Below are positions 3,910 to 53,913 of a stretch of DNA of 64,000 nucleotides, one piece after another. The notes beneath the pieces were generated by a model. That model was not told where the DNA came from. It made no database searches and was given only the letters and a program-made list of their open reading frames with translations. The translations under genes and the position numbers were made by a program. The DNA is taken from IMG/VR virus record IMGVR_UViG_3300009537_000005, one strand, 5' to 3'. This DNA comes from a virus. How positions within the stretch are numbered: the first letter of the stretch is position 1; each line of letters opens with the position of its first letter.

Positions 3910-4353
3910 TTGGAAGGACCAAGTCAGGCCACATGTATATGGTCTGTTAGCCGCCGTCGGGTGGCAACAAATGGCTCTATGGGCGCTGTTCAACTGGAAG
4001 TGGGAGTGGGGATTTGCCATTCTGTTCGGATTGTCTTGGTTGACAATCTTATTACCGATATATATGTACTGCTACGTAATCTGGCGTACATGGGAGGAGG
4101 TATGAATGAACTAGAACTGCAAACGTACCGATCACAATTCGATAAACATACGCTTCAGATGATGGTAGTGATGTACTTGTATGAATTGTACGACATGATG
4201 TTCGTGGTAGATAGACGAATCGCAAGACTAACACCAAATGGGCGGGAATTGGCTGAGGTTCTGTTAAAAGAGCCCGAATACAGGGATTTTGCTATTGAAA
4301 GGGTCGATTCTGTACGAAAAAACAGTTCAAAGTGGCAAGACTACGTAAATTAG
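3910..4353 (+). CDS. hypothetical protein (alternative overlapping ORF 3890..4105 encodes a TM peptide)
   Basis: ORF track; last ORF before the tRNA-array promoter. Confidence 0.3.
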   Translation: MEGPSQATCIWSVSRRRVATNGSMGAVQLEVGVGICHSVRIVLVDNLITDIYVLLRNLAYMGGGMNELELQTYRSQFDKHTLQMMVVMYLYELYDMMFVVDRRIARLTPNGRELAEVLLKEPEYRDFAIERVDSVRKNSSKWQDYVN

Positions 4354-4365
4354 CAAGTTTGGGGC

Positions 4366-4406
4366 TTGACAAATTTACATTTTGATCCCAAAATATATGT
4401 GCAGGG
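4366..4406 (+). promoter_or_regulatory. sigma70-like promoter of family TTGACAAA-N17-CAAAATATA; drives the tRNA/Y RNA array
   Basis: cTTGACAaatttacattttgaTCCCAAAATATAtg; the same 40-nt architecture recurs at 11665, 38232(-), 51676(-) and 58940(-). Confidence 0.6.
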
Positions 4407-4478
4407 GCTAAAACCCCGGTTTGCCCGATAAAAAATTGCCCGGCTACCTAAATGGATGAACGCAGGGCGGGGCAACTC

Positions 4479-4550
4479 GCAGGGCTGATCTAACTGGAAT
4501 GAGCATTGTCTCCAAAACAATGAATCCTCGTTCGAATCGAGGGCCCTGTG
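4479..4550 (+). tRNA. tRNA-Trp (anticodon CCA)
   Basis: Acceptor GCAGGGC/GCCCTGT, anticodon arm ATTGT-CTCCAAA-ACAAT, T-arm CCTCG-TTCGAAT-CGAGG; weak D-stem. Confidence 0.6.
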
Positions 4551-4555
4551 CTTAT

Positions 4556-4626
4556 AGGCGTGTCGTCTAATGGCAAGACGCGAAGCTGTTAACTTCGTTA
4601 TCTAGGTTCGAGTCCTAGCGTGCCTG
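4556..4626 (+). tRNA. tRNA-Asn (GTT)
   Basis: Acceptor AGGCGTG/CGTGCCT, anticodon arm CGAAG-CTGTTAA-CTTCG, T-arm CTAGG-TTCGAGT-CCTAG. Confidence 0.7.
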
Positions 4627-4632
4627 CCTAAT

Positions 4633-4755
4633 GTGAGCCGAAGGGTCGTGGGTTATCATATCAGAAACGTAAAAGTCGCCTCTCGGGGTGAACATACGAA
4701 GGCAGGAGCCGTGATGCCCGGCCATCTCCCATCCCATTCCTTGCTCGCATAACTT
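4633..4755 (+). ncRNA. Y RNA-like ncRNA A (Ro60-binding-type helix; 3' end abuts tRNA-Ala)
   Basis: 5' box GAGCCGAAGGGTCGTGGGTTATCAT pairs with 3' box CCTTGCTC to give GAGC-[C bulge]-GA / UU-GCUC; a pyrimidine tract CCATCTCCCATCCCATTCC precedes the 3' strand; compare human Y RNA 5' GGUCCGAAGGUAGUGAGUUAUC. Confidence 0.65.
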
Positions 4756-4827
4756 GGGGAATTCATATTAACGGGAGTATGCCTCGTTTGCACCGAGGTC
4801 GTGTGGGTTCGAGTCCCTCATTCTCCA
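4756..4827 (+). tRNA. tRNA-Ala (TGC)
   Basis: Acceptor GGGGAAT/ATTCTCC, anticodon arm CCTCG-TTTGCAC-CGAGG, T-loop TTCGAGT; atypical D-arm. Confidence 0.55.
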
Positions 4828-4947
4828 CCTAGCCCGAGTGACGACGGTCACGAGCATATGCCGGGCAAGGTATTCGTCTCTAGCCGCAAATCGAGACGCC
4901 GCTGCGGAAACTGACCTGCCCCGTAGACGCGGTTTGTTAAGGTCCAC

Positions 4948-5019
4948 GCCCCTCTGGTGAAATGGATATCACTCGTGGCTTCGAACCACGCGTTGCGCGT
5001 TCAAGTCGTGCGGGGGGTG
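4948..5019 (+). tRNA. tRNA-Arg (TCG)
   Basis: Acceptor GCCCCTC/GGGGGGT (G-U pairs), D GTGA-loop-TCAC, anticodon arm CGTGG-CTTCGAA-CCACG, T-loop TTCAAGT. Confidence 0.65.
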
Positions 5020-5087
5020 CCTAATCGGGTCGGGGACATAGCGTTACCTGGCTAAAGTCCGCTGTGTCACAAACTTATCCGAAACAT

Positions 5088-5159
5088 GCCGATATAGCTC
5101 AGATGTAGAGCAGTCGCCTTGTAAGCGACAGTGCGTGGACTCGAGAACCACTATCGGCC
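5088..5159 (+). tRNA. tRNA-Thr (TGT) with a non-canonical T-loop
   Basis: Acceptor GCCGATA/TATCGGC, D GCTC-AGATGTA-GAGC, anticodon arm GTCGC-CTTGTAA-GCGAC; T-loop reads CTCGAGA instead of TTCRAAT. Confidence 0.55.
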
Positions 5160-5162
5160 CCA

Positions 5163-5234
5163 GCGGGCTTGGTGTTAGCAGTAGCACGACGGCCTTCCAA
5201 GCCGCAAGGACGAGTGCGAATCTCGTAGCCCGCT
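5163..5234 (+). tRNA. tRNA-Gly (TCC)
   Basis: Perfect acceptor GCGGGCT/AGCCCGC, anticodon loop CTTCCAA, T-arm ACGAG-TGCGAAT-CTCGT. Confidence 0.7.
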
Positions 5235-5363
5235 CTTAAGCAGAATTAGTTTATCTTAGTAAAACGGAGCCTTGCCAAGGCTCAGTGCGGGGAGCATGGC
5301 CCCGATTCTGCTCCTAAGATACTGTCTGAACAGGAGGTTCGAACCCTCCCAGCAGTATCTCAG

Positions 5364-5434
5364 TGCCTCTTAGTCTAGCGGCAGGACTGCGGTCTTTGGA
5401 ACCGTAAGGCGTGGTTCGAATCCACGAGAGGCAT
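5364..5434 (+). tRNA. tRNA-Gln (TTG)
   Basis: U1-A72 acceptor TGCCTCT/AGAGGCA (bacterial Gln-like), anticodon arm GCGGT-CTTTGGA-ACCGT, T-arm CGTGG-TTCGAAT-CCACG. Confidence 0.75.
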
Positions 5435-5437
5435 CCT

Positions 5438-5566
5438 ATGGTTTGGAACAGTCCTTTTGGTACGATTTATATCTCGCCCGACGTATATTTCGTTCTACTC
5501 GTCGTATGGTTATCTTTGCTTGTATATGGTGGAATGTACATCATGGGAGTGTTCGAAGATAAATAA
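5438..5566 (+). CDS. hypothetical 42-aa hydrophobic peptide (MVWNSPFGTIYISPDVYFVLLVVWLSLLVYGGMYIMGVFEDK) between tRNAs
   Basis: Uninterrupted ATG..TAA frame filling the gap between the two tRNA-Gln genes; predicted single TM helix; below the ORF-track size cutoff. Confidence 0.25.
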   Translation: MVWNSPFGTIYISPDVYFVLLVVWLSLLVYGGMYIMGVFEDK

Positions 5567-5639
5567 TCAGGGACGGTGTAATAGGTTGCACGTCCGGCTC
5601 TGAACCGGAAGATTGCAGGTTCGATCCCTGCTCCCTGAT
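5567..5639 (+). tRNA. tRNA-Gln (CTG)
   Basis: U1-A72 acceptor TCAGGGA/TCCCTGA, anticodon arm TCCGG-CTCTGAA-CCGGA, T-arm GCAGG-TTCGATC-CCTGC. Confidence 0.75.
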
Positions 5640-5718
5640 CCTAGAGACACACAACGGACAAGGCTAGAGGCCGCCGAAGGCGGGTGGGTAGCGAGTGGTT
5701 GACCAGTGTCTCTAACAA

Positions 5719-5791
5719 GCCGCTGTAAGATAAAGGACAGTCGCCAATGCTTCTAACATTGGGAGTGGTGGTTCGAATCCATCCAGCGGTG
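5719..5791 (+). tRNA. tRNA-Arg (TCT)
   Basis: Acceptor GCCGCTG/CAGCGGT, anticodon arm CAATG-CTTCTAA-CATTG, T-arm GGTGG-TTCGAAT-CCATC. Confidence 0.65.
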
Positions 5792-5793
5792 CC

Positions 5794-6025
5794 TATATCG
5801 GGGATTGGGAAAGTCTAGCTAATCCGCTCGCCTTGGACGCGAGAGATCGCTGGGGCAGAGCCAGCATCCCCGACCTAGCCCCCACCGGTACCAGTGAGGG
5901 GTGAGCCTAGTTTCGAGGCCAACTATTCTGTGGCTCAACACAATGTTGGTCCCTGCCTTGAGCAAGTAGGCTAGGCAAATGAAACCCGCCCGGCTGTAGC
6001 GTATGCGAAATTCGCCGGGCAATAC
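5794..6025 (+). ncRNA. unassigned structured spacer in the tRNA array (candidate ncRNA)
   Basis: 232 nt with no tRNA fold; nested inverted repeats (GGGGAT..ATCCCC; GCCCGGC-19nt-GCCGGGC); the overlapping minus-strand ORF 5819..6037 has no support. Confidence 0.25.
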
Positions 6026-6107
6026 GGAAGCGCCCAAAGGAGCGGTACGCGGTCTTGAAAACCGTGAGATGTGAAAGCATGTGGGAGTTCGAGTCTCTCC
6101 GCTTCCG
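6026..6107 (+). tRNA. tRNA-Ser (TGA), class II
   Basis: Acceptor GGAAGCG/CGCTTCC, anticodon arm GCGGT-CTTGAAA-ACCGT, long variable arm (about 18 nt), T-arm GGGAG-TTCGAGT-CTCTC. Confidence 0.75.
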
Positions 6108-6256
6108 CCTAAAGGGTCTATCTGCCCCGGCCCCTAGCTATGGGCACATAGCATAAGAGGTCGCATTCTAGAGGGGCTTGGATTGATCCTAGCCCGCTTC
6201 AAGAGATTGCACCATGTCAGAAAGGACAGAGAGCAAACCATTGGCGGGCTAAACGT

Positions 6257-6328
6257 GGGGATTGTAGTTTATGGAGTAAAACCCTGTCTGTGGAACAGGC
6301 GTAAAGGGTGCGAATCCCTTCAATCCTC
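6257..6328 (+). tRNA. tRNA-His (GTG) with encoded G-1
   Basis: Extra 5' G pairs with C73; acceptor GGGATTG/CAATCCT, anticodon arm CCTGT-CTGTGGA-ACAGG, T-arm AAGGG-TGCGAAT-CCCTT. Confidence 0.75.
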
Positions 6329-6334
6329 CCTCAT

Positions 6335-6406
6335 GTGCTTGTAGCTGAGACAGTCTAGCACTCGGTTGAAGCCCGAGAGACACTGGTGCAATTCCAGTCG
6401 AGCACA
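6335..6406 (+). tRNA. tRNA-Phe (GAA)
   Basis: Acceptor GTGCTTG/CGAGCAC, anticodon arm CTCGG-TTGAAGC-CCGAG, T-arm ACTGG-TGCAATT-CCAGT. Confidence 0.75.
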
Positions 6407-6411
6407 CCTAA

Positions 6412-6484
6412 GTCTCTGATGCGAATGGCAAGCGGACCACCTGCAAAGTGGTTACTAACGTGGGTTCGAATCCCACCAGAGACT
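6412..6484 (+). tRNA. tRNA-Cys (GCA)
   Basis: Acceptor GTCTCTG/CAGAGAC, anticodon arm ACCAC-CTGCAAA-GTGGT, T-arm GTGGG-TTCGAAT-CCCAC; 7-nt variable loop. Confidence 0.65.
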
Positions 6485-6505
6485 CCTTAAAACAAACGAA
6501 GAATT

Positions 6506-6577
6506 GGGTTTGTGGCGAAGTGGCATCGCACCAGCCTCTTAAGCTGTGAGTCGGTAGTTCGAATCTACCCAAGCCCA
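6506..6577 (+). tRNA. tRNA-Lys (CTT)
   Basis: Acceptor GGGTTTG/CAAGCCC, D GCGA-AGTGGCAT-CGC, anticodon loop CTCTTAA, T-arm GGTAG-TTCGAAT-CTACC. Confidence 0.7.
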
Positions 6578-6582
6578 CCTAT

Positions 6583-6663
6583 GCAGTTGTGGTGGAACGG
6601 CATACACGCTGGCCTCAAACCCCAGTGGGGAAACCCGTGCAGGTTCGACTCCTGTCAACTGCA
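6583..6663 (+). tRNA. tRNA-Leu (CAA), class II
   Basis: Acceptor GCAGTTG/CAACTGC, D GTGG-AACGGCAT-ACAC, anticodon loop CTCAAAC, 13-nt variable arm, T-arm GCAGG-TTCGACT-CCTGT. Confidence 0.65.
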
Positions 6664-6667
6664 CTAT

Positions 6668-6741
6668 GCAAGCGTGAAGGGAATGGCATACCTCGGTCAT
6701 TTAAAATGACTGGCTTGGTGGTTCGAGTCCACCCGCTTGTA
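6668..6741 (+). tRNA. tRNA with anticodon TAA (Leu codons UUR) but a short class-I variable loop
   Basis: Acceptor GCAAGCG/CGCTTGT, anticodon arm GGTCA-TTTAAAA-TGACT, 5-nt variable loop, T-arm GGTGG-TTCGAGT-CCACC. Confidence 0.55.
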
Positions 6742-6746
6742 CCTAT

Positions 6747-6821
6747 GCCCTCGTAGGAGAATTGGCATATCCGCACGGTTTAGGCCCGTGGTCAATAGTG
6801 GTTCGAATCCACTCGGGGGTA
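6747..6821 (+). tRNA. tRNA with anticodon TAG (Leu codons CUN) but a short class-I variable loop
   Basis: Acceptor GCCCTCG/CGGGGGT, anticodon arm CACGG-TTTAGGC-CCGTG, 6-nt variable loop, T-arm AGTGG-TTCGAAT-CCACT. Confidence 0.55.
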
Positions 6822-6890
6822 CCTTGTGTAAAGTAGTTTAGATTTTTCTTAACTCAAATCCATTTGAGTATAGTTTTCTTTACTCAACGC

Positions 6891-6965
6891 GCGCCGGTAG
6901 CTCCAATCGGTTAGAGCAGGAGTCTTTTAAACTCAAGGCTGGGGGTTCGAATCCCTCGCGGCGCA
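6891..6965 (+). tRNA. tRNA-Lys (TTT)
   Basis: D GCTC-loop-GAGC, anticodon loop CTTTTAA, T-arm GGGGG-TTCGAAT-CCCTC, acceptor GCGCCGG/GCGGCGC (7-66 mismatch). Confidence 0.65.
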
Positions 6966-6970
6966 CTCCT

Positions 6971-7044
6971 GCCATCATAGTCTAGTGGAAGGACGCAAGC
7001 CTTTCAAGCTTGAGGGCGGGGGTCAGTACCCCGTGATGGTACCA
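6971..7044 (+). tRNA. tRNA-Glu (TTC), CCA encoded
   Basis: Glu-like D-arm GTCTAGTGGAAGGAC, anticodon arm CAAGC-CTTTCAA-GCTTG, T-loop GTCAGTA (non-canonical), 3' TGATGGT-A-CCA. Confidence 0.65.
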
Positions 7045-7045
7045 T

Positions 7046-7117
7046 GCTCTTGTAGTCTAGTGGACAGGACGCTACCCTCTCAAGGTAGAAGCCGGGGTTC
7101 AACTCCCCGTGAGAGCA
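7046..7117 (+). tRNA. tRNA-Glu (CTC)
   Basis: GTCTAGTGGACAGGAC D-arm, anticodon arm TACCC-TCTCAAG? read as CTCTCAA loop (CTC), T-arm CGGGG-TTCAACT-CCCCG, acceptor GCTCTTG/TGAGAGC. Confidence 0.6.
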
Positions 7118-7359
7118 CCTAGGCACGGACCAACGCGGCGAAAGCCGAGGAAGCTCGGGACTACATAGGGCAACTCAGTACAGCCACAGAGACGAGTAAA
7201 GTGAAACGGGCCACGGCTGAGAGTTAGCAATCCCAAGTCGTGCGACAGTGACCCGCTGAGAAGCACAGGTAGGGAGCAGTCACTCGTAAAGAGGGACCGT
7301 CACTTAGTGGCGAGACAGATGTTGGTCGATAACAGAATCCCGGCTATAGTGCCTAACAC
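7118..7359 (+). ncRNA. unassigned 242-nt purine-rich structured spacer (candidate ncRNA)
   Basis: No tRNA fold and no ORF; GAAA-containing motifs (GCGGCGAAAGCCGAGG, GAGTAAAGTGAAACGGGCC); flanked by tRNA-Glu and tRNA-Ser. Confidence 0.2.
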
Positions 7360-7443
7360 GGATGGTTGGCAGAGAGGCTAATTGCACTCGGTTGCTAACC
7401 GAGCGGGGTAACACCCACATAGGTTCGAATCCTATACCATCCG
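7360..7443 (+). tRNA. tRNA-Ser (GCT), class II
   Basis: Perfect acceptor GGATGGT/ACCATCC, anticodon arm ACTCGG-TTGCTAA-CCGAG, long variable arm, T-arm ATAGG-TTCGAAT-CCTAT. Confidence 0.75.
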
Positions 7444-7463
7444 CCTGCGTTATCAAAAAGGCT

Positions 7464-7496
7464 AAAATTTCAAAATAACTTCTCTTTTTGGAGATA
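7464..7496 (+). promoter_or_regulatory. conserved upstream element (copy 2)
   Basis: AAAATTTCAAAATAACTTCTCTTTTTGGAGATA. Confidence 0.4.
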
Positions 7497-7498
7497 TA

Positions 7499-7726
7499 AT
7501 GTATGAAGTAAATATGTTTTATCCGGGCAAAGTCAGAAGTAATCTAGAAAAAGAATTTGACGATAAGATATACGGCCGTTGGGCATCCGGCTATAGCTTT
7601 GAAGATAATATCAGAGACATAGCGTTTAGCATTGAAACTCTAGACCTGGTACGAGATTTGATGGCCTACTTACCCTGTGACGGCTGGATTACGGTACGAC
7701 TGAGAGACGGAGTGGTAGAAGCATAA
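7499..7726 (+). CDS. hypothetical small protein embedded in the tRNA array
   Basis: ORF track; preceded by the conserved AAAATTTCAAAATA...CTTTTTGGAGA element plus SD. Confidence 0.35.
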   Translation: MYEVNMFYPGKVRSNLEKEFDDKIYGRWASGYSFEDNIRDIAFSIETLDLVRDLMAYLPCDGWITVRLRDGVVEA

Positions 7727-7736
7727 ATTACTACCC

Positions 7737-7770
7737 TAAAATTTCAAAATAGTCTCGCTTTTTCGGAGAG
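7737..7770 (+). promoter_or_regulatory. conserved upstream element (copy 3)
   Basis: AAAATTTCAAAATAGTCTCGCTTTTTCGGAGAG. Confidence 0.4.
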
Positions 7771-7776
7771 ATTTCC

Positions 7777-7980
7777 ATGCACAAGCAGAATAATCGTTGG
7801 ACTTGGAAAGAGTTTGGTAAGCGGATCAGCCCACACGCTGGATGGTTTAGTAGATGGAGACGTGGTGACGGGAGACTATGGAAAAAGAAGTTAAGTAAGG
7901 CGCGGAGACGAGCGTGGAAAGACCCACACCAACGGGGATTACTAAGTGTCGAGCGGGAATGTAATTGGAAGACATGGTAA
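7777..7980 (+). CDS. hypothetical basic (R/K/W-rich) small protein
   Basis: ORF track; preceded by a second copy of the same conserved upstream element. Confidence 0.35.
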   Translation: MHKQNNRWTWKEFGKRISPHAGWFSRWRRGDGRLWKKKLSKARRRAWKDPHQRGLLSVERECNWKTW

Positions 7981-8195
7981 TGCGTGGATTAGCATACAGA
8001 CGATATCAAATGGATCGTATCAAGAAGAAACGGGCCCACTACTGGGGTGGACACGCTGGTAGTGATCCAAGACTGTTGGGAATAGTTGCTAAAACACCAC
8101 ACCCTTGTAGTGGCTGGTGTTGTGGCAATCCACGGAAGCATTTTGGCGAGAAGACTCGTCAAGAAATAACATGGACGGCTGGCGATCTCGGTTGA
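7965..8195 (+). CDS. hypothetical small protein; 3' end would overlap tRNA-Ile
   Basis: ORF track; overlaps the 5' part of the tRNA called at 8173, so the true extent is uncertain. Confidence 0.2.
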   Translation: MEDMVMRGLAYRRYQMDRIKKKRAHYWGGHAGSDPRLLGIVAKTPHPCSGWCCGNPRKHFGEKTRQEITWTAGDLG

Positions 8196-8247
8196 ACGCG
8201 CTACTCTGATAAGGTAGTATAGGCAGGTTCGAATCCTGCGCCGTCTA
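8173..8247 (+). tRNA. tRNA-Ile (GAT)
   Basis: Acceptor GGACGGC/GCCGTCT, anticodon arm CTACT-CTGATAA-GGTAG, T-arm GCAGG-TTCGAAT-CCTGC. Confidence 0.65.
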
Positions 8248-8252
8248 CTTCT

Positions 8253-8326
8253 GGACTGGAAGCCAATTGGATTGAGGCATCACTCTTATAAGGTGAGTAT
8301 AGCTGGTTCGACTCCAGCCCGGTCTA
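8253..8326 (+). tRNA. tRNA with anticodon TAT (would read the AUA Ile codon)
   Basis: Acceptor GGACTGG/CCGGTCT, anticodon arm TCACT-CTTATAA-GGTGA, T-arm GCTGG-TTCGACT-CCAGC. Confidence 0.55.
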
Positions 8327-8331
8327 CCTAC

Positions 8332-8405
8332 GGCTTGGTAGCTCAATTGGATAGAGCGCCACACTGTCGATGTGGTGGTTGCGGGTTCAAGTCCCGTCCG
8401 AGTCG
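8332..8405 (+). tRNA. tRNA-Asp (GTC)
   Basis: D GCTC-AATTGGAT-AGAGC, anticodon arm CCACA-CTGTCGA-TGTGG, T-arm GCGGG-TTCAAGT-CCCGT. Confidence 0.7.
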
Positions 8406-8411
8406 CCTTTA

Positions 8412-8492
8412 TAGGGCCGAAGAGTAAGTGGGTTATCATACAGTTGACGTATACCTTCGGGTACTCCCACCCTCACAACTTGCCCTATACAT
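8412..8492 (+). ncRNA. Y RNA-like ncRNA B (short form; compensatory variant of the Ro60-binding helix)
   Basis: 5' box GGGCCGAAGAGTAAGTGGGTTATCAT pairs with 3' box CTCACAACTTGCCC to give GGGC-[C]-GA / UU-GCCC. The A-to-G change on the 5' strand is matched by T-to-C on the 3' strand relative to copies A, C and D. Internal GTACC-TTCG-GGTAC tetraloop hairpin; 3' end abuts tRNA-Val. Confidence 0.65.
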
Positions 8493-8566
8493 GCAGGCTT
8501 AGCTCAGTTGGATAGAGCACTTCTTTTACACAGAAGGTGTCGGGAGTTCGAGTCTCTCAGCCTGTA
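8493..8566 (+). tRNA. tRNA-Val (TAC)
   Basis: Acceptor GCAGGCT/AGCCTGT, D GCTC-AGTTGGAT-AGAGC, anticodon arm CTTCT-TTTACAC-AGAAG, T-arm GGGAG-TTCGAGT-CTCTC. Confidence 0.75.
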
Positions 8567-8573
8567 CCTATAT

Positions 8574-8741
8574 GTGAGCCGACGGTAACAGGGTTCTCGT
8601 CCTTATCAGGAGGAATTCTGAATGCGGGTAACCTGCTATAGTGGTTAAAGTGATGACTAGATCGGGCCCTTATGCTGGTCCGACAACGAAAACATTGCGG
8701 GTCTTGGACCTTCCCCTGGCCACAACTTGCTCACACAACAT
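8574..8741 (+). ncRNA. Y RNA-like ncRNA C (long form, about 168 nt)
   Basis: 5' box GAGCCGACGGTAACAGGGTTCTCGTCCTTATC and 3' box CCTTCCCCTGGCCACAACTTGCTCACACAACAT pair as GAGC-[C]-GA / UU-GCUC; 3' end abuts tRNA-Met. Confidence 0.55.
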
Positions 8742-8815
8742 GCCGAATAGGCCAATTGGATAGGCACCCGTCTCATTAACGGGGTTGTGTGGTTCGATTC
8801 CACAATTCGGTACCA
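8742..8815 (+). tRNA. tRNA-Met or Ile2 (CAT), CCA encoded
   Basis: Acceptor GCCGAAT/ATTCGGT-A-CCA, anticodon arm CCCGT-CTCATTA-ACGGG, T-arm TGTGG-TTCGATT-CCACA; no initiator signature. Confidence 0.7.
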
Positions 8816-8886
8816 CGCGGGGTTGAGGAGCGGCTCCTCCGTAGGCTCATAACCTACTCACGTCGGTTCGAATCCGACCCCCGCTA
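8816..8886 (+). tRNA. second CAT-anticodon tRNA (Met/fMet/Ile2 undetermined); starts directly after the CCA of the previous tRNA
   Basis: D GAGG-AGCGGCT-CCTC, anticodon arm GTAGG-CTCATAA-CCTAC (initiator-like loop sequence), T-arm GTCGG-TTCGAAT-CCGAC, acceptor CGCGGGG/CCCCGCT with a 1-72 mismatch. Confidence 0.5.
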
Positions 8887-8892
8887 CTTAGT

Positions 8893-9044
8893 ACGAGCCG
8901 ACGAGTAAGTGGGTTATCTTCTATCAAAAGAGAGGTCGTGAGTTCGAATCTCACCCCGTCTACCATAGACGGGTAGCTCAGTGGCAGAGCGCTGGCGAAA
9001 GCCTTCCCACTCTCATAACTTGCTCGTACAACATAACTCACAAT
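8893..9044 (+). ncRNA. Y RNA-like ncRNA D with a permuted tRNA-like domain (YrlA-type)
   Basis: 5' box GAGCCGACGAGTAAGTGGGTTATCTT; internal T-arm GTGAG-TTCGAAT-CTCAC; then CCCGTCT-ACCAT-AGACGGG (acceptor stem closed as a hairpin over a CCA-containing loop); then TA-GCTC-AGTGGCA-GAGC D-arm; then 3' box CCTTCCCACTCTCATAACTTGCTCGTACAACAT; followed by tRNA-Tyr. Confidence 0.7.
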
Positions 9045-9125
9045 GGCGGTGCGCCCGTGTGGGAACGGGGTCGGTCTGTAGAACCGATGGCATGCGCATA
9101 GGAAGTTCGATTCTTCACGCCGCCA
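9045..9125 (+). tRNA. tRNA-Tyr (GTA), class II
   Basis: Acceptor GGCGGTG/CGCCGCC, D CCCG-TGTGGGAA-CGGG, anticodon arm TCGGT-CTGTAGA-ACCGA, 12-nt variable arm, T-loop TTCGATT. Confidence 0.7.
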
Positions 9126-9182
9126 CCTAGACCAATTCGGGTCTATTATCCGAGTGGTTTTCTCCTCGGAAAGGAGGATTCA

Positions 9183-10826
9183 GTGACTTACACAAGGCAC
9201 TATAACGTACGAAAGACGCCACAGAACCAACCAATTCCGGGTAAGAACATGGTCGCCAACAGCGCTGGCGGTTTTGCGTTCGCCGTTGACGACTGGGCAC
9301 GTCTAAGACGTTTCTTAATTCTTGGCGCAGAAGGTGGTACATACTACATTGGCGAGAAGGAGCTAACAATCGGGAATGCCGAGGCTGTACTGCGTTGCAT
9401 CAAGGAAGATGGTATTGGTGTTGTTGACACGATTGTTGATGTCAGTAAGGGTGGTAGAGCACCAAAGAACGACCCTGCTCTATTTGCTTTAGCTATGTGT
9501 GCCGGATTAGGAAACGAAAACACGAAGCGCCATGCTCTTAACGCACTGCCAGAAGTAGCACGAATTGGTACTCACCTATTCACTTTCGCAGAGTACGTAC
9601 AAGCGTTTCGTGGCTGGGGACGGTCACTGCGCCGAGCCGTTGGTGAGTGGTACACAACCAAGGAACCAAAGCAACTAGCATACCAGCTAGTGAAGTATCA
9701 ACAGCGGAACGGTTGGTCACACCGTGACTTACTGCGACTATCTCACCCTAAGTCAGATGAGCACAACGTTCTGTTCAATTGGGTGACACAAGGACCGGGC
9801 GAAGGTACACACTTTGATTTGCCGGTAAATGAAGCCACTAGGTTAATTTACGCTTTCGAGAGGGCCAAGACAGCGGACGAAGCAGAGACTATTGAGTTGA
9901 TTATAGACTACGGTCTAACTCGTGAAATGATCCAGACAAAGCACCTAAACAGTGCGGATGTTTGGTTCGCTTTGCTACAGAACATGCCTATGACAGCTAT
10001 GATCCGGAACCTAGGCAAGATGACTCAGGTTGGGCTACTAGGTGACGGCCGATGGGACTCTAACAAGATTGTGCAGGACCGACTGCGAGACTCAGTGCGG
10101 TTGGCCAAGGCAAGAATTCACCCGCTGAATGTTTTAGTAGCTCTGAGAACCTACGATAGCGGTGGCGGATACCGAGGTAAGTTAGTCTGGAATCCGTCGC
10201 GAGACATTGTGAGCGCACTGAATGACGCTTTCTACCTGGCGTTCGATGGAGTATACCCAACAGGCAGGCGGTTTGTGTTGGGCGTGGACGTGAGCAGTAG
10301 CATGAGTGCTACGATAGGCAACACAGTGTTGTCTGCGGCAGAAGCCGCTGTGGCAATGGCGATGGTAATTCGACGAACGGAAGACCAAGCTATAATCCGA
10401 GGATTCGCTGGTGGCGAACGCCGGTATAGCGATCCCTTACAAGGTCCGAACTACGATGGTTTCATGGACTTAGGCATCAGTAGAGAGACACGACTAGAGT
10501 CAGCAATGGAACGGACACGAAACAAGAACTTCGGTCGGACAGACTGTGCTCTGCCTATGTTGTGGGCACTAAAGAACGAGGTCGAAGCTGACGTATTTTG
10601 TATTTTCACTGACTCAGAAACATGGGTAGGAAAAATTCACCCAGTACAGGCGCTACAACAGTACCGAGAAAAGATGAACATCCCGGCTAAGTTGATTGTT
10701 GTGGCGATGACAAGTAATGGCTTCAGCATCGCTGACCCAAACGATGGGGGCATGCTAGACGTGGTGGGATTTGATACATCAATTCCGCAAGTGATGGCGG
10801 ACTTCATTGGGATATCAGGCCCCTAA
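9183..10826 (+). CDS. rsr: Ro60/Rsr orthologue (TROVE domain plus C-terminal vWA domain with a MIDAS motif)
   Basis: N-terminal WARLRRFLILGAEGGTYYIGEKELTIGNAEAVLRCIKEDG...PALFALAMCAG matches Ro60 (human ...[39 protein letters not shown]...PMLFALA); C-terminal VLGVDVSSSMSA is a DxSxS MIDAS motif; GTG start after GGAAAGGAGG. Confidence 0.9.
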   Translation: MTYTRHYNVRKTPQNQPIPGKNMVANSAGGFAFAVDDWARLRRFLILGAEGGTYYIGEKELTIGNAEAVLRCIKEDGIGVVDTIVDVSKGGRAPKNDPALFALAMCAGLGNENTKRHALNALPEVARIGTHLFTFAEYVQAFRGWGRSLRRAVGEWYTTKEPKQLAYQLVKYQQRNGWSHRDLLRLSHPKSDEHNVLFNWVTQGPGEGTHFDLPVNEATRLIYAFERAKTADEAETIELIIDYGLTREMIQTKHLNSADVWFALLQNMPMTAMIRNLGKMTQVGLLGDGRWDSNKIVQDRLRDSVRLAKARIHPLNVLVALRTYDSGGGYRGKLVWNPSRDIVSALNDAFYLAFDGVYPTGRRFVLGVDVSSSMSATIGNTVLSAAEAAVAMAMVIRRTEDQAIIRGFAGGERRYSDPLQGPNYDGFMDLGISRETRLESAMERTRNKNFGRTDCALPMLWALKNEVEADVFCIFTDSETWVGKIHPVQALQQYREKMNIPAKLIVVAMTSNGFSIADPNDGGMLDVVGFDTSIPQVMADFIGISGP

Positions 10827-10834
10827 ACAGTGAT

Positions 10835-10865
10835 CCCGGCACCCAGCCGGGGTCATTCTCTTTTG
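10835..10865 (+). terminator. candidate intrinsic terminator after rsr
   Basis: CCCGGC-ACCCA-GCCGGG hairpin followed by GTCATTCTCTTTTG. Confidence 0.35.
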
Positions 10866-10878
10866 AAAGGAGAGAACA

Positions 10879-11076
10879 ATGTCCAAGACAACCGTGTGTA
10901 TTAAAGCGACTATCTATATTGATGTAGATGTTCCTCACTCTATTGTGGAGGTTGCGACAACGCTTGGTGAATTTCCTGTAGATCAGAAGCTACGAGAAGT
11001 ACTAAAAGATTCACTGGTTCTAATTGTGGATTGGGAAGACGCAGAGGTCGTGGCCCTCTTGTCACAGGACGAATAG
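10879..11076 (+). CDS. hypothetical small protein
   Basis: ORF track; SD GAAAGGAGAGAA upstream. Confidence 0.3.
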   Translation: MSKTTVCIKATIYIDVDVPHSIVEVATTLGEFPVDQKLREVLKDSLVLIVDWEDAEVVALLSQDE

Positions 11077-51969: not shown

Positions 51970-53161
51970 CTAATAGCGCCGTCGTTTCTTCAAAGTCCTC
52001 CAGCCAATTCGTTCGGATAACAAAATCTATCAAATGTTTATTTCCTTGTTGAACAAATGACTTATACGGCAAATCTTCCCACGTACCAACCAGATTTTCT
52101 TCGACCGGGTCTTCTCCAAGCGGTTCTCCTCTGGCTTGTGCTTCCTCTTTACTCGGGCTGGCATATCCATACGTCATGTAGCCATGGTAATTTTCTAGTC
52201 TTCCAGGCATAACGTTCTGTGCATAAGCAATAAACGTATCTTGAGGGAAATAAACCTCAATTCCATGCGCCGCGCATTGTCCTAACCACCATTCCATACC
52301 CGGTCGTTGTTGAAAATATTCTGTTTCTACCTGCTCTAGTTCGCACCCATAAATTTCAATACGTTCCCAATCCTTCACACCAGTTAATTTTTCATAAATT
52401 ACCAATGCAAGCATATAACTGAATGTCGAAGCGAAATACTGGTGTACATAACCAGCGCCTCGTGGTAATTTATCACCAATCAAAAGCTCACAGACCTCTC
52501 TCAAAGGAAATTTTACACTATTCGGAACGTCCGCAAAGTGCCTCTGCATGTAAATTTGAGGTACTTTGCTCTCTTGTAGCCATTTCCAATGGTCTTCTGC
52601 GTATCGAGTTCGTCGTCTAGTGAATCTCCAGCGATGGTGAAGCTGGAACCAGCGATCAAATAACGATATTTTTTCTTTAAAGATGACAGCGGAGTCATTC
52701 AAACCCCACCATTCGTCGATGCCAGTCTCGTTCCATGGTGCCAAAGGTCCACTTCGGCTGTGTGTACCCATCATCACAACAGTTTTCTTGTCCTTTCGTT
52801 GTTTCATTCGTTCTCGAATTGTGATCGGATGTGCCCTAGCAACGTAATCATATGCCATTTTCTTTTCTCTCGATGACGAGGGGCGCTCTGTCGACGGTAT
52901 GTTGAAGTTTGCTTCGCCGTCTTCGTTCACAGTAAGCGCCGTATGATTGTTGCACATCGGACAATTTATCGGATGAGTTCCAACCGGCATCATCGGGATA
53001 CTTACATTGAAGTTAAGTTCATCTCCACGAACCGGTGCCATTGGATTTGCTTGTCCATGCGCGCTTCTTTTGTGATTTCGTAGCGCCGCCACAGACCCAA
53101 ACTCCTTTTCGCATAGTGGACATTTCTTCTTTTGTTTTCTAGGTCTATTTCTTTTCGTCAT
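51929..53161 (-). CDS. hypothetical protein with an N-terminal C2H2-type zinc finger
   Basis: CPLCEKEFGSVAALRNHKRSAH. Confidence 0.4.
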   Translation of the reverse strand: MTKRNRPRKQKKKCPLCEKEFGSVAALRNHKRSAHGQANPMAPVRGDELNFNVSIPMMPVGTHPINCPMCNNHTALTVNEDGEANFNIPSTERPSSSREKKMAYDYVARAHPITIRERMKQRKDKKTVVMMGTHSRSGPLAPWNETGIDEWWGLNDSAVIFKEKISLFDRWFQLHHRWRFTRRRTRYAEDHWKWLQESKVPQIYMQRHFADVPNSVKFPLREVCELLIGDKLPRGAGYVHQYFASTFSYMLALVIYEKLTGVKDWERIEIYGCELEQVETEYFQQRPGMEWWLGQCAAHGIEVYFPQDTFIAYAQNVMPGRLENYHGYMTYGYASPSKEEAQARGEPLGEDPVEENLVGTWEDLPYKSFVQQGNKHLIDFVIRTNWLEDFEETTALLDELMEQENGKYNK

Positions 53162-53913
53162 TAGAATGCCGTCACTGGGGCAATGGGCCCGAACTTTCTC
53201 GATGGTAGTCTACGACGAAGTGATAGAAAGATTCCATTCTTGTAAAATATCGACCAGTCCTCGTTTTCGTGGATGATCTTATTCACGCCGTGAAATACAT
53301 CTGGATAGCCTTCTTCGTAGTTGTCGAAACCGATATAATCTGATGTCCGCTTGCTTACATTCTCGAAGTCTTTATACGGCATATCTCGCATATGATCGCC
53401 ATCAATGTAAGCAGTAACAAAATTATTTTCTTCCAATTCTTCCGGCCATGGATCGGAGTACTTCTGAATTAAATTTAACTTCACGTCAAACAGCTTGGCG
53501 TTCTTTCTCAACTCCTCTGGGGTAGCGACAAGCAGACTTTGATCTTCTTTTGGTTGACCGGTAGTGGGGTCTATAATTCTAATGTCCTCCTCCCTTTTTT
53601 CAGCGTCGTACGGATCAATACAATATACTTCTCCTTCTAATCCCAACTTTCGTTTTACAAGAGCCACGGCGATGGCGCTTGCTCCAAACAAAGTCCCAAT
53701 CTCTACGTGGTCTCCGTCGCCGGCGTTGGCAACCATGCTCATCAGGAAAACCAAACTCGCTCCGCCATCGGCAATTCTGCCTGTAAATTCCTTATCTTTC
53801 ATGCTCTGATTAAGTTCTTGCATAACTTTAAATACTTCTGGGTAAATCCTCATTACTTGGCCTCCGGTAATTTCGCCGCGCCTTGGGCGACAGCAATTTC
53901 TGCCAATTCCCAC
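53161..53913 (-). CDS. class I SAM-dependent methyltransferase (TylF/MycF-like O-methyltransferase)
   Basis: GDGDHVEIGTLFGASA Rossmann SAM-binding segment and YIDGDH metal/substrate motif. Confidence 0.45.
   Translation of the reverse strand: MGIGRNCCRPRRGEITGGQVMRIYPEVFKVMQELNQSMKDKEFTGRIADGGASLVFLMSMVANAGDGDHVEIGTLFGASAIAVALVKRKLGLEGEVYCIDPYDAEKREEDIRIIDPTTGQPKEDQSLLVATPEELRKNAKLFDVKLNLIQKYSDPWPEELEENNFVTAYIDGDHMRDMPYKDFENVSKRTSDYIGFDNYEEGYPDVFHGVNKIIHENEDWSIFYKNGIFLSLRRRLPSRKFGPIAPVTAF

Follow-up and report, generated by a model that had tools for sequence, protein, structure and literature searches.

A phage-encoded Ro60 gene with four Y RNA modules interleaved among tRNA genes

The window, a 64,000-nucleotide stretch of DNA, belongs to an uncultured tailed phage whose sole source is a metagenome. 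It carries a Ro60 (Rsr) gene and, in the preceding tRNA array, four Y RNA-like modules, M1 to M4 (Table 1). The original prediction of this arrangement is confirmed. The refined 5' ends of the modules lie within about 2 nt of those first proposed; on the 3' side the modules end 3-15 nt earlier, being cut where the closing stem ends.

Table 1. Features of the Ro60 and Y RNA locus (comparison loci carry L numbers)
Feature	Position	Strand	Remarks
Sigma-70-like promoter match	4366-4394	+	TTGACA-17-CAAAAT, 10/12; just 5' of first tRNA
tRNA array	4479-9127	+	Co-oriented; 29 confident tRNAs and one atypical tRNA-Pro-like gene; all 20 amino acids
Y RNA-like M1	4631-4750	+	Between tRNA-Asn (end 4628) and tRNA-Ala (start 4756)
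Possible fifth, degenerate Y-like module	5023-5086	+	nhmmer match to L034 9898-9957
Minimised type-A RNase P RNA-like gene	7120-7359	+	240 nt; RF00010
Y RNA-like M2	8410-8489	+	Between tRNA-Asp (end 8407) and tRNA-Val (start 8493)
Y RNA-like M3	8572-8736	+	Between tRNA-Val (end 8568) and tRNA-Met (start 8742)
YrlA-type Y RNA M4 (predicted)	8891-9029	+	Between tRNA-Met (end 8887) and tRNA-Tyr (start 9045)
Hairpin and U-rich tract	9135-9155	+	Between tRNA-Tyr and Ro60; weak terminator-like site
Ro60 (Rsr) orthologue	9183-10826	+	547 aa; TROVE/HEAT ring and vWA domain, MIDAS motif DVSSS
Intrinsic-terminator-like hairpin	10829-10867	+	12 bp, 7 G-C, T-rich tail; 3 nt past Ro60 stop

The Ro60 reading frame starts with GTG, 6 nt past an AAGGAGG Shine-Dalgarno sequence, and its predicted product is a full-length, intact Ro60 ring protein. 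It matches the Pfam families TROVE (1.8e-49) and vWA_Ro60 (3.6e-64) and PHROG 850, "RNA-binding protein" (4e-85), and can be aligned over its whole length with Xenopus Ro60 (1YVP; E = 1.8e-138), human RO60 (4.5e-135) and D. radiodurans Rsr (1.3e-108). The TROVE peptide strings quoted in the original prediction are present in the frame. The proposed C-terminal vWA domain with its MIDAS motif is also found, the phage DVSSS being aligned to DVSAS of Xenopus Ro60. The domain matches and the alignments to solved Ro60 structures thus bear out the assignment of the frame as a Ro60 orthologue.

The tRNA array stands as first described, with the count of about 28 revised to that given in Table 1. ARAGORN finds 26 tRNAs, to which Rfam adds those at 5088-5159 and 5163-5234; relaxed ARAGORN adds Gly(tcc) at 5163-5235 and Ser(tga) at 6021-6106. 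The Pro-like gene (about 5795-5883) is assigned by similarity to the tRNA-Pro of L034, in which the tRNA order is nearly identical. Between its tRNAs lie the Y RNA modules, the RNase P RNA-like gene, three small ORFs and further conserved elements that are not tRNAs. The RNase P RNA-like gene sits flush between tRNA-Glu(ctc) and tRNA-Ser(gct). It contains P1, P2, P3, CR-I, P4 (bulged U), P5, P15 with GGU, J18/2, J2/4 and CR-V, and its specificity domain is cut down to about 40 nt. The match to RF00010 spans model positions 1-367 with 49.4 bits (E = 2.5e-13), under the gathering score of 100. Homologues lie beside tRNA-Ser(gct) in L034, L037 and L040, with compensatory changes in P1-P4. Both this gene and the possible fifth Y-like module had escaped the original prediction.

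The architecture common to M1-M4 runs from a closing stem through a bulged C and a G-U/A-U step to an upper stem (GGG/CCC) and the motif UUAYC. The lower part, up to the G-U/A-U step, is the canonical Ro60-binding helix, which closes each Y RNA and has the upper stem and UUAYC above it. The two boxes that the modules had been said to share occur in extended form in all four (5', GCCGA[A/C]G..GU..(G/C)(U/A)GGGUU[A/C]UC; 3', CCC...CA.(A/C)CUUGC). The 22-nt box-1 pattern is matched exactly by M2 and M4, against 0.05 matches expected by chance, while M3 and M4 read GCCGACG where the published motif is GNCGAA. The "pyrimidine tract" reported before the 3' arm proved to consist mostly of the upper stem's 3' strand.

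In M1 the closing stem UGUGAGC/GCUCGCA, bulged C and GA/UU are followed by upper helices GGG/CCC and GUGGG/CCCAU, UUAUC and an apical two-hairpin domain. M2 (AUAGGGC/GCCCUAU, bulged C, GA/UU, GUGGG/CCCAC, UUAUC and an apical UUCG hairpin) is the shortest of the four and the most similar to metazoan Y RNAs, which its small apical hairpin resembles. M3 (UGUGAGC/GCUCACA, bulged C, GA/UU) has CAGGG/CCCUG, a compensatory change with respect to GUGGG/CCCAC, then UUCUC and a large multi-hairpin apical domain. M4 combines a stem of the Ro60-binding type with a permuted tRNA-like domain composed of a T arm (GUGAG-UUCGAAU-CUCAC), a D arm (GCUC-AGUGGCA-GAGC) and an acceptor-like hairpin (CCCGUCUA-CCA-UAGACGGG). 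The apical modules all differ: M4 has a tRNA mimic, M2 a small hairpin, and M1 and M3 larger, lineage-specific domains. The closing stems differ in a compensatory manner, as in UGUGAGC/GCUCGCA, AUAGGGC/GCCCUAU and GUACGAGC/GCUCGUAC.

Unconstrained folding closes all four modules with a terminal stem of 7-8 bp. M1-M3 have unremarkable MFE z-scores, between -1.2 and -1.6; that of M4 is -3.7. Thermodynamic folding omits the two-base GA/UU step directly past the bulge, GAAG being paired in other registers in M1 and M2, and this step rests on comparative counts. Searched for by itself, the helix of 6 bp with bulged C and GA/UU is unspecific, with 38 matches versus about 28 in shuffled sequences; the significance of the modules lies in the extended boxes and in the comparison among loci.

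Comparison was made with R1 and with R2, a covariance model trained on other loci together with M1 and M2. M1 scores 53.9 bits with R1 and 50.3 bits with R2; M2 scores 66.2 and 62.9 bits, both modules being in the R2 training set. M3 (35.1 bits, E = 9e-7) and M4 (50.1 bits, E = 5e-11), which lie outside that set, are found by R2 over their full length. R1 and R2 give 61 matches in 25 of 38 Ro60 loci, the window counted, all 61 on the Ro60 strand. The Y RNA architecture adjoins Ro60 46 times, in each case on the strand of Ro60, across 21 loci. Over these 46 modules, 92.9% of the cells are paired; shuffling lowers this to 73.0%, and sliding the partners to 49% or less. Of 13 pairs, 11 have two-sided changes. 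The bulged C is conserved in 45 of the modules and G10 in all 46; UUAYC is essentially invariant. In L034, where Ro60 is 73% identical, the gene order is the same and the modules occupy the same tRNA slots, including an M3 orthologue (9097-9226) in the Val/Met slot. M1 homologues in L034 (8712-8828 and 3687-3765), L037 (2761-2849) and L036 (1016-1111) have the same stems by RNAalifold.

The central reading, a complete phage-encoded Ro60 and Y RNA module with the Y RNAs interleaved among tRNAs, is supported by the Pfam matches, the orthologous modules of this syntenic relative, the 46 modules in 21 loci and the covariation, and the original claim of completeness is upheld. The identity and architecture of the unit of Ro60 and four Y RNAs can be stated with high confidence. 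The exact placement of the modules in inter-tRNA spacers, the tRNA-derived arms of M4 and the weak z-scores of M1-M3 would also suit modules that are tRNA pseudogenes in decay, or that serve the array only as spacers or in processing, and are functionally unlinked to Ro60. However, this reading, already disfavoured, is highly improbable: the architecture lies beside Ro60 even in loci such as L003, L019 and L012, where tRNA genes were undetected in the flanks, the matches keep to the Ro60 strand, the bulged-C helix covaries, and a module search of the Ro60-less tRNA array L040 gave zero matches.

Two Rfam checks had been suggested. The Y_RNA model RF00019 has zero matches in the window. The YrlA model RF02553 matches M4 only (43.4 bits, E = 2e-7), below its gathering score of 69; M4 scores at least as high as the ET08 YrlA (37.4), Cashline (42.2), L003 (43.0) and L034 (42.9). 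On M2, the model of the nematode stem-bulge RNAs, which are Y RNA homologues, gives 25.3 bits (RF01656), under the gathering score of 38. M4 can be aligned with the published YrlA of mycobacteriophage ET08 and six other Ro60-adjacent RNAs, with 19 of 27 RNAalifold pairs covarying, and is predicted to be a permuted tRNA mimic of the YrlA class.

This mimicry of T arm, acceptor and D arm, and a tRNA called inside M4 by relaxed ARAGORN, would fit Y RNAs, above all M4, that act mainly as decoys titrating host tRNA-targeting defence nucleases or tRNA-modifying enzymes. The Y RNAs would then complement the phage tRNA array, and Ro60 would merely stabilise them. Enzymes of tRNA metabolism act on YrlA (PMC4201824), and a role against tRNA-targeting defences has been proposed for phage tRNA arrays (PMC10264068). 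The modules do lie within an array covering all 20 amino acids. Nevertheless, a decoy role is rather unlikely. The anticodon arm, the target of most anticodon nucleases, is missing from its usual position in the M4 domain, M4 alone among the four modules is tRNA-like, and conservation is highest in the Ro60-binding helix and UUAYC rather than in the tRNA mimic.

The possible fifth module reads UCGGGU-C-GG ... UU-AUCCGA, with GUUACC past the upper stem and G replacing the A of the GA step. Its counterpart in L034 is itself an R1/R2 match, a four-sequence RNAalifold alignment gives 9 covarying pairs, and the MFE z-score is -2.4. It is undetected in the window by both R1 and R2, and is therefore proposed as a degenerate Y-like module with low confidence. 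A short Y-like module fills the slot between tRNA-Tyr and Ro60 in L034, L036 and L037. The hairpin in this slot of the window appears by eye to be an internally deleted remnant of such a module (UUCGGGUC..UUAUCCGAG), and might serve as an attenuator.

The promoter match is a candidate start of a stable-RNA operon, defined by consensus, such sites being no more frequent in the region than in shuffles. The terminator-like hairpin, likewise a consensus match, is a candidate operon end. The best explanation of the layout is a single co-oriented stable-RNA-plus-Ro60 unit, putatively running from the promoter-like site at 4366 to the terminator-like hairpin at 10829. The gaps between Y RNAs and tRNAs in the window (5'/3') are 2/3, 2/1, 3/3 and 3/13 nt by model-match coordinates. 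Abutment within 1-13 nt is also seen in other Ro60-encoding phage contigs, both related and unrelated: a module at 2761-2851 lies between tRNA-Met (end 2760) and tRNA-Tyr (start 2851) in L037, modules abut tRNA-Tyr in L036 (1016-1113; 1114) and tRNA-Met in L029 (5166-5237; 5239) and L013 (4914-4983; 4988), and in L002 a tRNA ending at 5315 abuts a module at 5317. This closeness suggests release by tRNA-processing enzymes. None of the tRNAs upstream of the Y RNAs encodes a full CCA. The Y RNAs would be co-transcribed with the tRNAs and excised by tRNA maturation enzymes. RNase P, in cutting at the 5' end of the tRNA that follows, would create the 3' end of the Y RNA, and 3'-end maturation of the preceding tRNA would create its 5' end. 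The RNase P RNA involved may be the phage's own. Such a tRNA-punctuated route is moderately favoured.

Taken as a whole, the locus is probably best explained as a stable-RNA and Ro60 unit that may act as a phage RNA surveillance and decay particle. Ro60 would bind the conserved helix, and the differing apical modules may gate the Ro60 cavity or link the protein to different partners, by analogy with the complex that host PNPase forms in D. radiodurans, Salmonella and Thermus phage phiLo. In this way the phage would install its own structured-RNA surveillance and decay particle, the most likely targets being misfolded or nuclease-damaged tRNA and rRNA in a cell flooded with about 30 phage tRNAs. 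The physiological role is put forward tentatively; surveillance of phage tRNAs, decoys and a PNPase tether are suggestions by analogy.

In phiLo, Ro60 assembles with host PNPase and a Y RNA-like RNA into a ternary complex for which a counter-defence role has been suggested (PMC12135203). By the same token, the particle could sequester or redirect host PNPase or degradosome nucleases and blunt host defences, CRISPR RNA maturation being the example proposed for phiLo, with no part in RNA quality control. With its several different apical modules the particle could capture a number of host factors, but the argument is purely analogical, the sequence has no feature pointing to PNPase binding, and this alternative is unlikely. 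Ro60/TROVE proteins and a tRNA-like partner have also been linked to RNA repair (PMC7790460, PMC7824862). The particle could be a platform on which cleaved tRNAs are repaired with the help of an RNA ligase such as RtcB, supplied by the host or encoded at another place. Parallels would be the Salmonella rsr-yrlBA-rtcBA operon and the jumbo-phage association, and the adjacent tRNA array would fit. This reading is quite unlikely, RtcB, Rnl, PNK and cyclase being absent among about 45 window ORFs scanned; PNPase, RtcB and RNA ligase genes were not found within the 64-kb window. A surveillance and decay particle remains the tentatively preferred explanation.

In the literature searched, no description was found of Y RNA-tRNA abutment within 1-13 nt or of the metazoan-like character of phage Y RNAs. 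The RNase P RNA in the same array may be more novel than the Ro60/Y RNA module, the novelty of which had been overstated. Y RNAs adjoining Ro60 were described in 22 phages in 2014 (PMC4201824), and the structure of the Thermus phage phiLo Ro60, which has two Y RNA-like RNAs, was solved in 2025 (PMC12135203). A Ro60 homologue is present in 355 GenBank phage records, annotated among those listed as "Ro-like RNA binding protein" or "RNA-binding protein". Systems of this kind are thus already known in phages, and the locus is a good new example rather than a new kind.

The protein encoded directly after the tRNA array is, judging by its sequence, an unambiguous Ro60 orthologue. The original prediction had called it so from a TROVE signature and a C-terminal vWA domain, and the profile searches bear this out: the N-terminal HEAT-repeat ring domain matches Pfam TROVE (PF05731, E 1.8e-49), and the C-terminal part matches the Ro60-type vWA domain over positions 1-165 of the 165 in the profile (PF25045, E 3.6e-64). 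The DxSxS MIDAS motif reads VDVSSSMS and lies in register opposite IDVSASMN of Xenopus Ro60. Residues 13-541 align with residues 6-533 of the Xenopus protein (1YVP, E 1.8e-138), and PHROG 850 is matched at 4e-85. Three solved Ro60 structures align to the phage protein over their full length. Ro60 in general forms a closed ring that takes up the Y RNA helix on the outer surface and ends of single-stranded RNA in the central hole. The bit scores of the full-length alignments are 466 for Xenopus Ro60, 455 for human RO60 and 367 for D. radiodurans Rsr, the vertebrate proteins being closer to that of the phage than the Deinococcus one.

Ro60 is common in phages. It was found by tblastn in 355 GenBank phage records, mostly actinobacteriophages, at no more than 50% identity, and also in 30 IMG/VR contigs. 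A large protein database holds an identical copy of the window protein and relatives at 73%, 64%, 63% and 59% identity. The closest cellular proteins (about 56% identical) belong to Chloroflexota, Brocadia and an archaeal metagenome-assembled genome, and are uninformative about the host. The window itself is phage DNA, encoding a family-A DNA polymerase, a DnaB-like helicase, a UvsX/RecA-like recombinase, a large terminase, a major head protein and lysis genes. A megablast search of 4400-10900 against 50,697 GenBank phages gave no match, and there is no close relative among them.

Four segments lying between tRNA genes, here called M1 to M4, share a 5' box, GCCGA[A/C]G..GU..GGGUU[A/C]UC, and a 3' box, CCC..CA..CUUGC. 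The chance expectation for the 5' box pattern is 0.05 matches. In unconstrained folding each segment is closed by a terminal stem of 7-8 bp, the sequence of which varies from module to module by compensatory changes. Above this stem follow, in order, a bulged C with a G-U/A-U step, an internal loop, an upper stem and UUAUC, so that all four modules have the paired ends, bulged C and subsequent G-U/A-U that are general to Y RNAs. The upper stem GUGGG/CCCAC becomes CAGGG/CCCUG in M3, a double compensatory change. The internal loop of M1 and M3 is one nucleotide shorter than that of M2 and M4 on both strands, and this paired shortening fits a geometric constraint. The apical part of M2 is a UUCG hairpin; those of M1 and M3 are multi-hairpin domains that are kept in relatives. 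The bulged-C helix of the original prediction is supported by the closing stems in the folds of all four modules and by its covariation across 46 phage modules.

Locations of the principal features in the window and of related features in comparison viral contigs
Feature	Location	Strand	Remarks
tRNA array	4479-9127	+
Y RNA-like module M1	4631-4750	+
Y RNA-like module M2	8410-8489	+
Y RNA-like module M3	8572-8736	+
Y RNA-like module M4	8891-9029	+
UUAYC	columns 24-28 of A10 (alignment of 46 phage Y RNA modules); window 8433-8437 (M2), 8914-8918 (M4)	+
Minimised type-A RNase P RNA-like gene	7120-7359	+	between tRNA-Glu(ctc) and tRNA-Ser(gct), flush with both
RNase P-like homologue	L034 6864-7284		beside tRNA-Ser(gct)
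RNase P-like homologue	L037 1047-1372		beside tRNA-Ser(gct)
RNase P-like homologue	L040 4190-4535		beside tRNA-Ser(gct)
Small ORF	7499-7726	+	75 aa, acidic
Small ORF	7777-7980	+	67 aa, very basic, Trp-rich
Small ORF	7965-8195	+	76 aa, basic, Cys-containing; PHROG 4499 (function unassigned), 3.6e-16
Ro60 ORF	9183-10826	+

In prokaryotes and phages, Chen et al. (2014, PMC4201824) looked for Y RNAs on the Ro60 strand and within 4 kb of that gene. M2 to M4 lie 150-770 nt upstream of Ro60 on its strand, and M1 lies 4.4 kb upstream in the same tRNA array. Readings of the four modules as tRNA pseudogenes or as mere spacers were rejected, as was a tRNA-like domain in M3, the sole basis of which was a relaxed ARAGORN call with a 4-base anticodon. 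A bare descriptor (6-bp stem, bulged C, GA/UU) was found to be unspecific, giving 38 matches against about 28 in shuffled sequences, and covariance models were used instead.

The first model, R1, was built from the joined 5' and 3' arms of the four window modules. In unrelated viral contigs it picked out this architecture directly upstream of Ro60, in one to four copies, and it split M3 and M4 because of their long inserts. The second model, R2, was trained on 16 modules that did not include M3 and M4 and mended this splitting, all four window modules being full-length matches. R2 gave 61 matches in 25 of 38 Ro60 loci, the window counted, every one of them on the Ro60 strand. In the phages ET08, Cashline and Phosso, R1 matched nothing; modules in ET08 and Cashline were later detected by R2, which found none in Phosso. 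An additional YrlA match at 2882-2984 of the comparison contig L006 overlaps two tandem tRNAs and was taken as the dimeric-tRNA artefact of which Chen et al. warned (PMC4201824); the real module of this contig is at 5520-5665.

When 46 modules were aligned by fitting to the covariance model, 92.9% of the cells in the proposed helix were paired, as against 73.0% in column shuffles and at most 49% with slid partners, and 11 of the 13 helix pairs showed changes on both sides. For the M1 and YrlA families, these stems were also obtained with MAFFT and RNAalifold, which are independent of the model. The bulged nucleotide is C in 45 of the 46 modules and the next is G in all of them; at the position of the second A of GCCGAAG, 33 modules have A, 7 have U and 6 have C. 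UUAYC, directly 3' of the upper-stem GGG, is essentially invariant. It outranks most of the Ro60-binding helix in conservation.

A possible fifth module at 5023-5086 resembles a short module found between tRNA-Tyr and Ro60 in relatives. Its GA step reads GG, and it gave no match to R1 or R2. On our own inspection, the hairpin at 9135-9155 resembles what an internal deletion would leave of that short module, at its ancestral position.

M4 is of the YrlA type. Its apical domain is a permuted tRNA-like structure in which a T arm (loop of the UUCGAAU type), a loop-closed acceptor-like stem and a D arm (AGCUCAGUGG.AGAGC), all seen in the cmscan alignment, are inserted within the Y RNA stem. The MFE z-score is -3.7. 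Against the Rfam YrlA model (RF02553), M4 scores 43.4 bits (E 2e-7), short of the gathering score of 69. The corresponding values are 37.4 for the published ET08 YrlA and 42.2-43.0 for the Ro60-adjacent copies in Cashline, in L003 (a comparison viral contig) and in L034 (a syntenic relative of the window); the threshold is therefore uninformative for phages. M4 aligns with ET08 YrlA (nhmmer E 4.7e-7), and RNAalifold of eight sequences that included the latter gave the closing stem, both the T and D arms and the acceptor-like stem; covariation was seen in 19 of the 27 pairs. A blastn search with M4 found nothing beyond a 60-nt tRNA-like match in Streptomyces phage BRock. As a class, YrlA RNAs carry tRNA-type modifications and serve as substrates of tRNA enzymes. 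With respect to the motif GNCGAAN0-1G at the Ro60-binding site, M1 and M2 fit, reading GCCGAAG; M3 and M4 read GCCGACG, the last A being replaced by C.

The tRNA array is dense and co-oriented and covers all 20 amino acids. ARAGORN called 26 tRNAs and Rfam two more; relaxed ARAGORN confirmed tRNA-Gly(tcc) and added tRNA-Ser(tga), and an atypical tRNA-Pro-like gene is suggested by its similarity to a relative. A promoter-like site (TTGACA-17-CAAAAT) is situated at 4366, and a 12-bp terminator-like hairpin starts 3 nt past the Ro60 stop codon. Between the two, the plus strand has only two weak terminator-like hairpins, at 9135-9155 and 9299-9311. An isolated tRNA gene lies far from the main array, at 62596-62668 (+) (Rfam, 62.9 bits).

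In model-match coordinates, each module of the window begins 2-3 nt beyond the upstream tRNA, and 1-13 nt separate its end from the downstream tRNA; the junctions are equally tight in five comparison contigs (L037, L036, L029, L013 and L002). The flanking tRNAs inspected all lack a fully encoded CCA. In L034, the Ro60 of which is 73% identical, the same replication genes follow downstream and 28 tRNAs stand in nearly the same order, with modules in the same slots: Asn/Ala, Asp/Val (two modules), Val/Met and Met/Tyr. The Met/Tyr module is of the YrlA type (42.9 bits), and an extra short module lies between tRNA-Tyr and Ro60. From this recurrent abutment we infer that the Y RNAs would be released from a tRNA precursor, with RNase P generating their 3' ends and the 3'-end processing of tRNA their 5' ends. 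No description of Y RNAs inside tRNA arrays was found in the literature searched.

The array contains a further RNA gene, which resembles a minimised bacterial type-A RNase P RNA. Rfam RF00010 matches it at 49.4 bits (E 2.5e-13, cmscan), spanning model positions 1-367. It does not reach the gathering score of 100, most of the specificity domain being absent. The catalytic core is present, with P1-P5, P15, J18/2-J2/4, and CR-I and CR-V forming P4 with its bulged U. Of P7-P14, the full specificity domain, about 130 nt are missing and ACAGAGA and GUAAA remain as remnants. Homologues were found in L034, L037 and L040, the last being an unrelated 75-kb viral contig. P4 is formed by AGC[U]CGGG/CCCGGCU in the window, AGC[U]CAGG/CCUGGCU in L040, ACC[U]CCGAA/UUCGGGGU in L034 and ACC[U]CAGAA/UUCUGGGU in L037, and P1-P4 of the four copies stay paired through compensatory changes. 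Rfam did not detect the copies in L034 and L037.

The specificity-domain regions of the three homologues are not alignable. In L034 about 125 nt are inserted in the P3 helix (6884-7021), a T-arm-like hairpin (GGGGUUCAAAUCCCC) among them, and in L037 about 70 nt are inserted between P2 and J2/4. The 26-tRNA array of L040 that holds the RNase P-like RNA also has a tmRNA gene at 1678-1956 (ARAGORN; tag ANTFKNFVGSYTPARHLATPQVV); no Ro60-type Y RNA match was found in this contig.

The canonical CR-I 15-mer occurs in 83 IMG/VR contigs. In 18 of these, 2-12 tRNA genes are found within 1.5 kb of the match (five or more in 16 cases), and in 13 of the 18 a CR-V match follows 143-295 nt downstream. Of the contigs that combine CR-I with a tRNA array, several are 100-460 kb long, up to 463 kb. 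The CR-I match in contig L039 apparently lies in coding sequence and lacks CR-V, and was set aside as a chance match. The canonical CR-I/CR-V pattern with a gap of 180-210 nt had no match in viral contigs, and blastn of the RNase P-like RNA had none in GenBank phages. No description of a phage-encoded RNase P RNA was found in the open-access literature searched, in which reviews of jumbo phages never use the term. If active, such genes would represent a ribozyme for tRNA maturation carried by phages within their tRNA arrays.

Just downstream of the RNase P-like RNA, the array is interrupted by three small ORFs (7446-8195, +). An exact 15-mer, TAAAATTTCAAAATA, precedes the first two of them, at 7463 and 7737; its chance expectation at up to two mismatches is 0.27 matches. 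The ORFs could encode RNA-binding cofactors or could be driven by a phage promoter.

Several other elements of the array were observed. A 77-nt element at 5642-5718 (+) separates tRNA-Gln(ctg) from tRNA-Arg(tct) and is flush with both. A stem of 9 bp closes it, and its MFE z-score is -3.75, none of 200 shuffles folding as well. It has no Rfam match and is kept in the same slot of L034 (4794-4891; nhmmer E 1.4e-8), with a 23-nt insertion in the apical hairpin. The longest part of the array in which default settings call no tRNA, 5794-6257 (+), contains the tRNA-Pro(UGG)-like gene (about 5795-5883), which has a non-canonical T loop and resembles tRNA-Pro of L034, then some 140 nt to which no feature was assigned (5884-6020), tRNA-Ser(tga) at 6021-6106, and a 69-nt element at 6188-6256 that is kept upstream of tRNA-His in L034 (E 1.4e-11). 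The 49-nt spacer 5315-5363 (+) holds a T-arm-like minihelix (GGAGGUUCGAACCCUCC) lacking the rest of a tRNA, and the AT-rich spacer 5437-5566 (+) holds a hydrophobic ORF of 42-51 aa (..YFVLLVVWLSLLVYGGMYIMGV..) that may encode a small membrane peptide.

Elsewhere in the window, a sugar-biosynthesis gene cluster adjoins the terminase (53161-58166, -). Its members are a NeuB-family nonulosonic acid synthase (6.9e-64), a weak cytidylyltransferase match, a methyltransferase, a short-chain dehydrogenase and a transketolase-like protein. The cluster is a predicted auxiliary sialic-acid-like pathway in the phage.

By analogy with known Ro60 particles, the protein would assemble on the conserved helix of the four RNAs, and each of their differing tips would bring in partners or substrates of its own. 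It has been proposed that the tRNA arrays of phages offset defences aimed at tRNAs (PMC10264068). Because the locus is set beside a full tRNA complement, the most economical role would be surveillance or clearance of misfolded or cleaved tRNA and rRNA. Alternatively, the Y RNAs may act as decoys, or the complex may serve as a repair platform or hijack PNPase. For the last, a proposed counterpart is Thermus phage phiLo, in which RNA binding and a ternary complex with host PNPase have been proven experimentally (PMC12135203); genes for PNPase, RtcB or a ligase were not found in the 64-kb window.

Surveillance could also be one part of a wider arrangement, in which the region of 4.4-10.9 kb is a self-contained phage island for RNA maturation and surveillance. 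Taken as a single joint reading of precursor, own ribozyme and Ro60 particles, we consider this doubtful. One precursor transcript, punctuated by about 30 tRNAs, would release four or five Y RNAs together with a minimised, phage-encoded RNase P ribozyme. Assisted perhaps by host RnpA or by the small basic ORFs of 7777-8195, this ribozyme would help to process the transcript that encodes it, and Ro60 with its differently tipped Y RNAs would form several particles policing the phage tRNAs during infection. If this were true, metazoan-like Y RNAs (of the GUGGGUUAUC type) and a vertebrate-like Ro60 would circulate together in phages, which would be a plausible vehicle for the patchy spread of a whole RNP between domains of life.

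Most work on Ro60-Y RNA particles has dealt with them as a human autoantigen or a bacterial stress-response machine, and their role in phages is almost unexplored, one structural paper being available. The locus and its relatives offer a compact testable system with one protein and four RNAs that have a common binding helix and different effector modules. They also show that a tRNA operon can accommodate Y RNA genes, and this predicts an RNase P/RNase Z biogenesis route not described for Y RNAs. The consensus of the 46 phage modules is close to metazoan Y RNAs and also bears on the spread of the RNP between domains of life.

Phage Ro60 with adjacent Y RNAs is already known as a kind. In 2014, 22 phages with YrlA beside Ro60 were reported (PMC4201824), jumbo-phage surveys noted a TROVE protein with a tRNA-like partner (PMC7824862), and the structure of a phage Ro60-Y RNA has been published (PMC12135203). 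The useful additions here are the tRNA-punctuated layout, the four divergent paralogues and the 46-member phage consensus with its invariant UUAYC.

Among the systems nearest to this locus is that of ET08, a mycobacteriophage of the Bxz1/ET08 type (cluster C; PMC4201824), in which Y RNA genes also lie immediately upstream of Ro60 on the same strand. Its Ro60 is about 45% identical to that of the window, its YrlA has the T arm, acceptor-like hairpin, D arm and closing stem of M4, and R2 finds its second module at 6854-6925 of the ET08 locus (L031). However, the ET08 Y RNAs have protein-coding genes as neighbours; the nearest annotated tRNAs lie about 2.5 kb upstream of them, and no tRNA array encloses them, whereas the window has four and possibly five modules, each bracketed by tRNAs. 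The apical domains of M1 to M3 have no counterpart in ET08.

On its published description, phiLo is the best mechanistic precedent for the locus. It has a phage Ro60 and upstream Y RNA-like genes with a conserved CGAA, but these are only two (Yrl1 and Yrl2), and no tRNA-array context is described there (PMC12135203). The phiLo Ro60 was not among the PDB matches of the window protein at E <= 0.001. Rsr-YrlA/YrlB of Salmonella Typhimurium and Rsr-Yrn1-PNPase of D. radiodurans likewise have more than one Y RNA, one of which (YrlA) is a tRNA mimic and the others not. In these systems the Y RNA is a gate and a tether, gating Ro60 and tethering it to PNPase (summarised in PMC4201824). Unlike the phage locus, they are cellular and stress-induced, and the Salmonella operon includes RtcB/RtcA. 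The GGUUAYC motif of the phage modules is absent from the Rfam YrlA consensus.

The likeness to human Y RNA noted in the original prediction is a fair one. In the stretch compared, M2 reads CCGAAGAGUAAGUGGGUUAUC, human Y1 CCGAAGGUAGUGAGUUAUC and human Y4 CCGAUGGUAGUGGGUUAUC. UUAYC is common to the phage modules, human Y1/Y4 and the nematode stem-bulge RNAs. The phage RNAs have the lower stem, bulged C and G-U/A-U step of metazoan Y RNAs, the GUG/CAC of their upper stem (PMC4702372) and then UUAUC. The proposed search with Rfam Y_RNA (RF00019) nevertheless failed in the window, giving no match at E <= 10 on 4300-9300, 8889-9044 or 8406-8494 even with lax filters. Among related modules, RF00019 matches one at 5571-5680 of L003 at 31.7 bits. 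The nematode stem-bulge model (RF01656) matches M2 and M4 at 24-25 bits and modules in the comparison contigs L003, L032 and L036, the overall range being 24-33 bits. All these scores are below the gathering score of 38 bits. Unlike metazoan Y RNAs, the phage RNAs lack a Pol III terminator and a La-binding U tail, and their biogenesis would proceed through a tRNA precursor.

Release of non-tRNA RNAs by tRNA punctuation is known from MALAT1 mascRNA, the tRNA-miRNA units of gammaherpesviruses and mitochondrial punctuation. As in these cases, the non-tRNA RNA abuts a tRNA in the phage array, and cleavage by RNase P or RNase Z would define its ends. Applied to Y RNAs, this comparison would be an analogy for biogenesis only.
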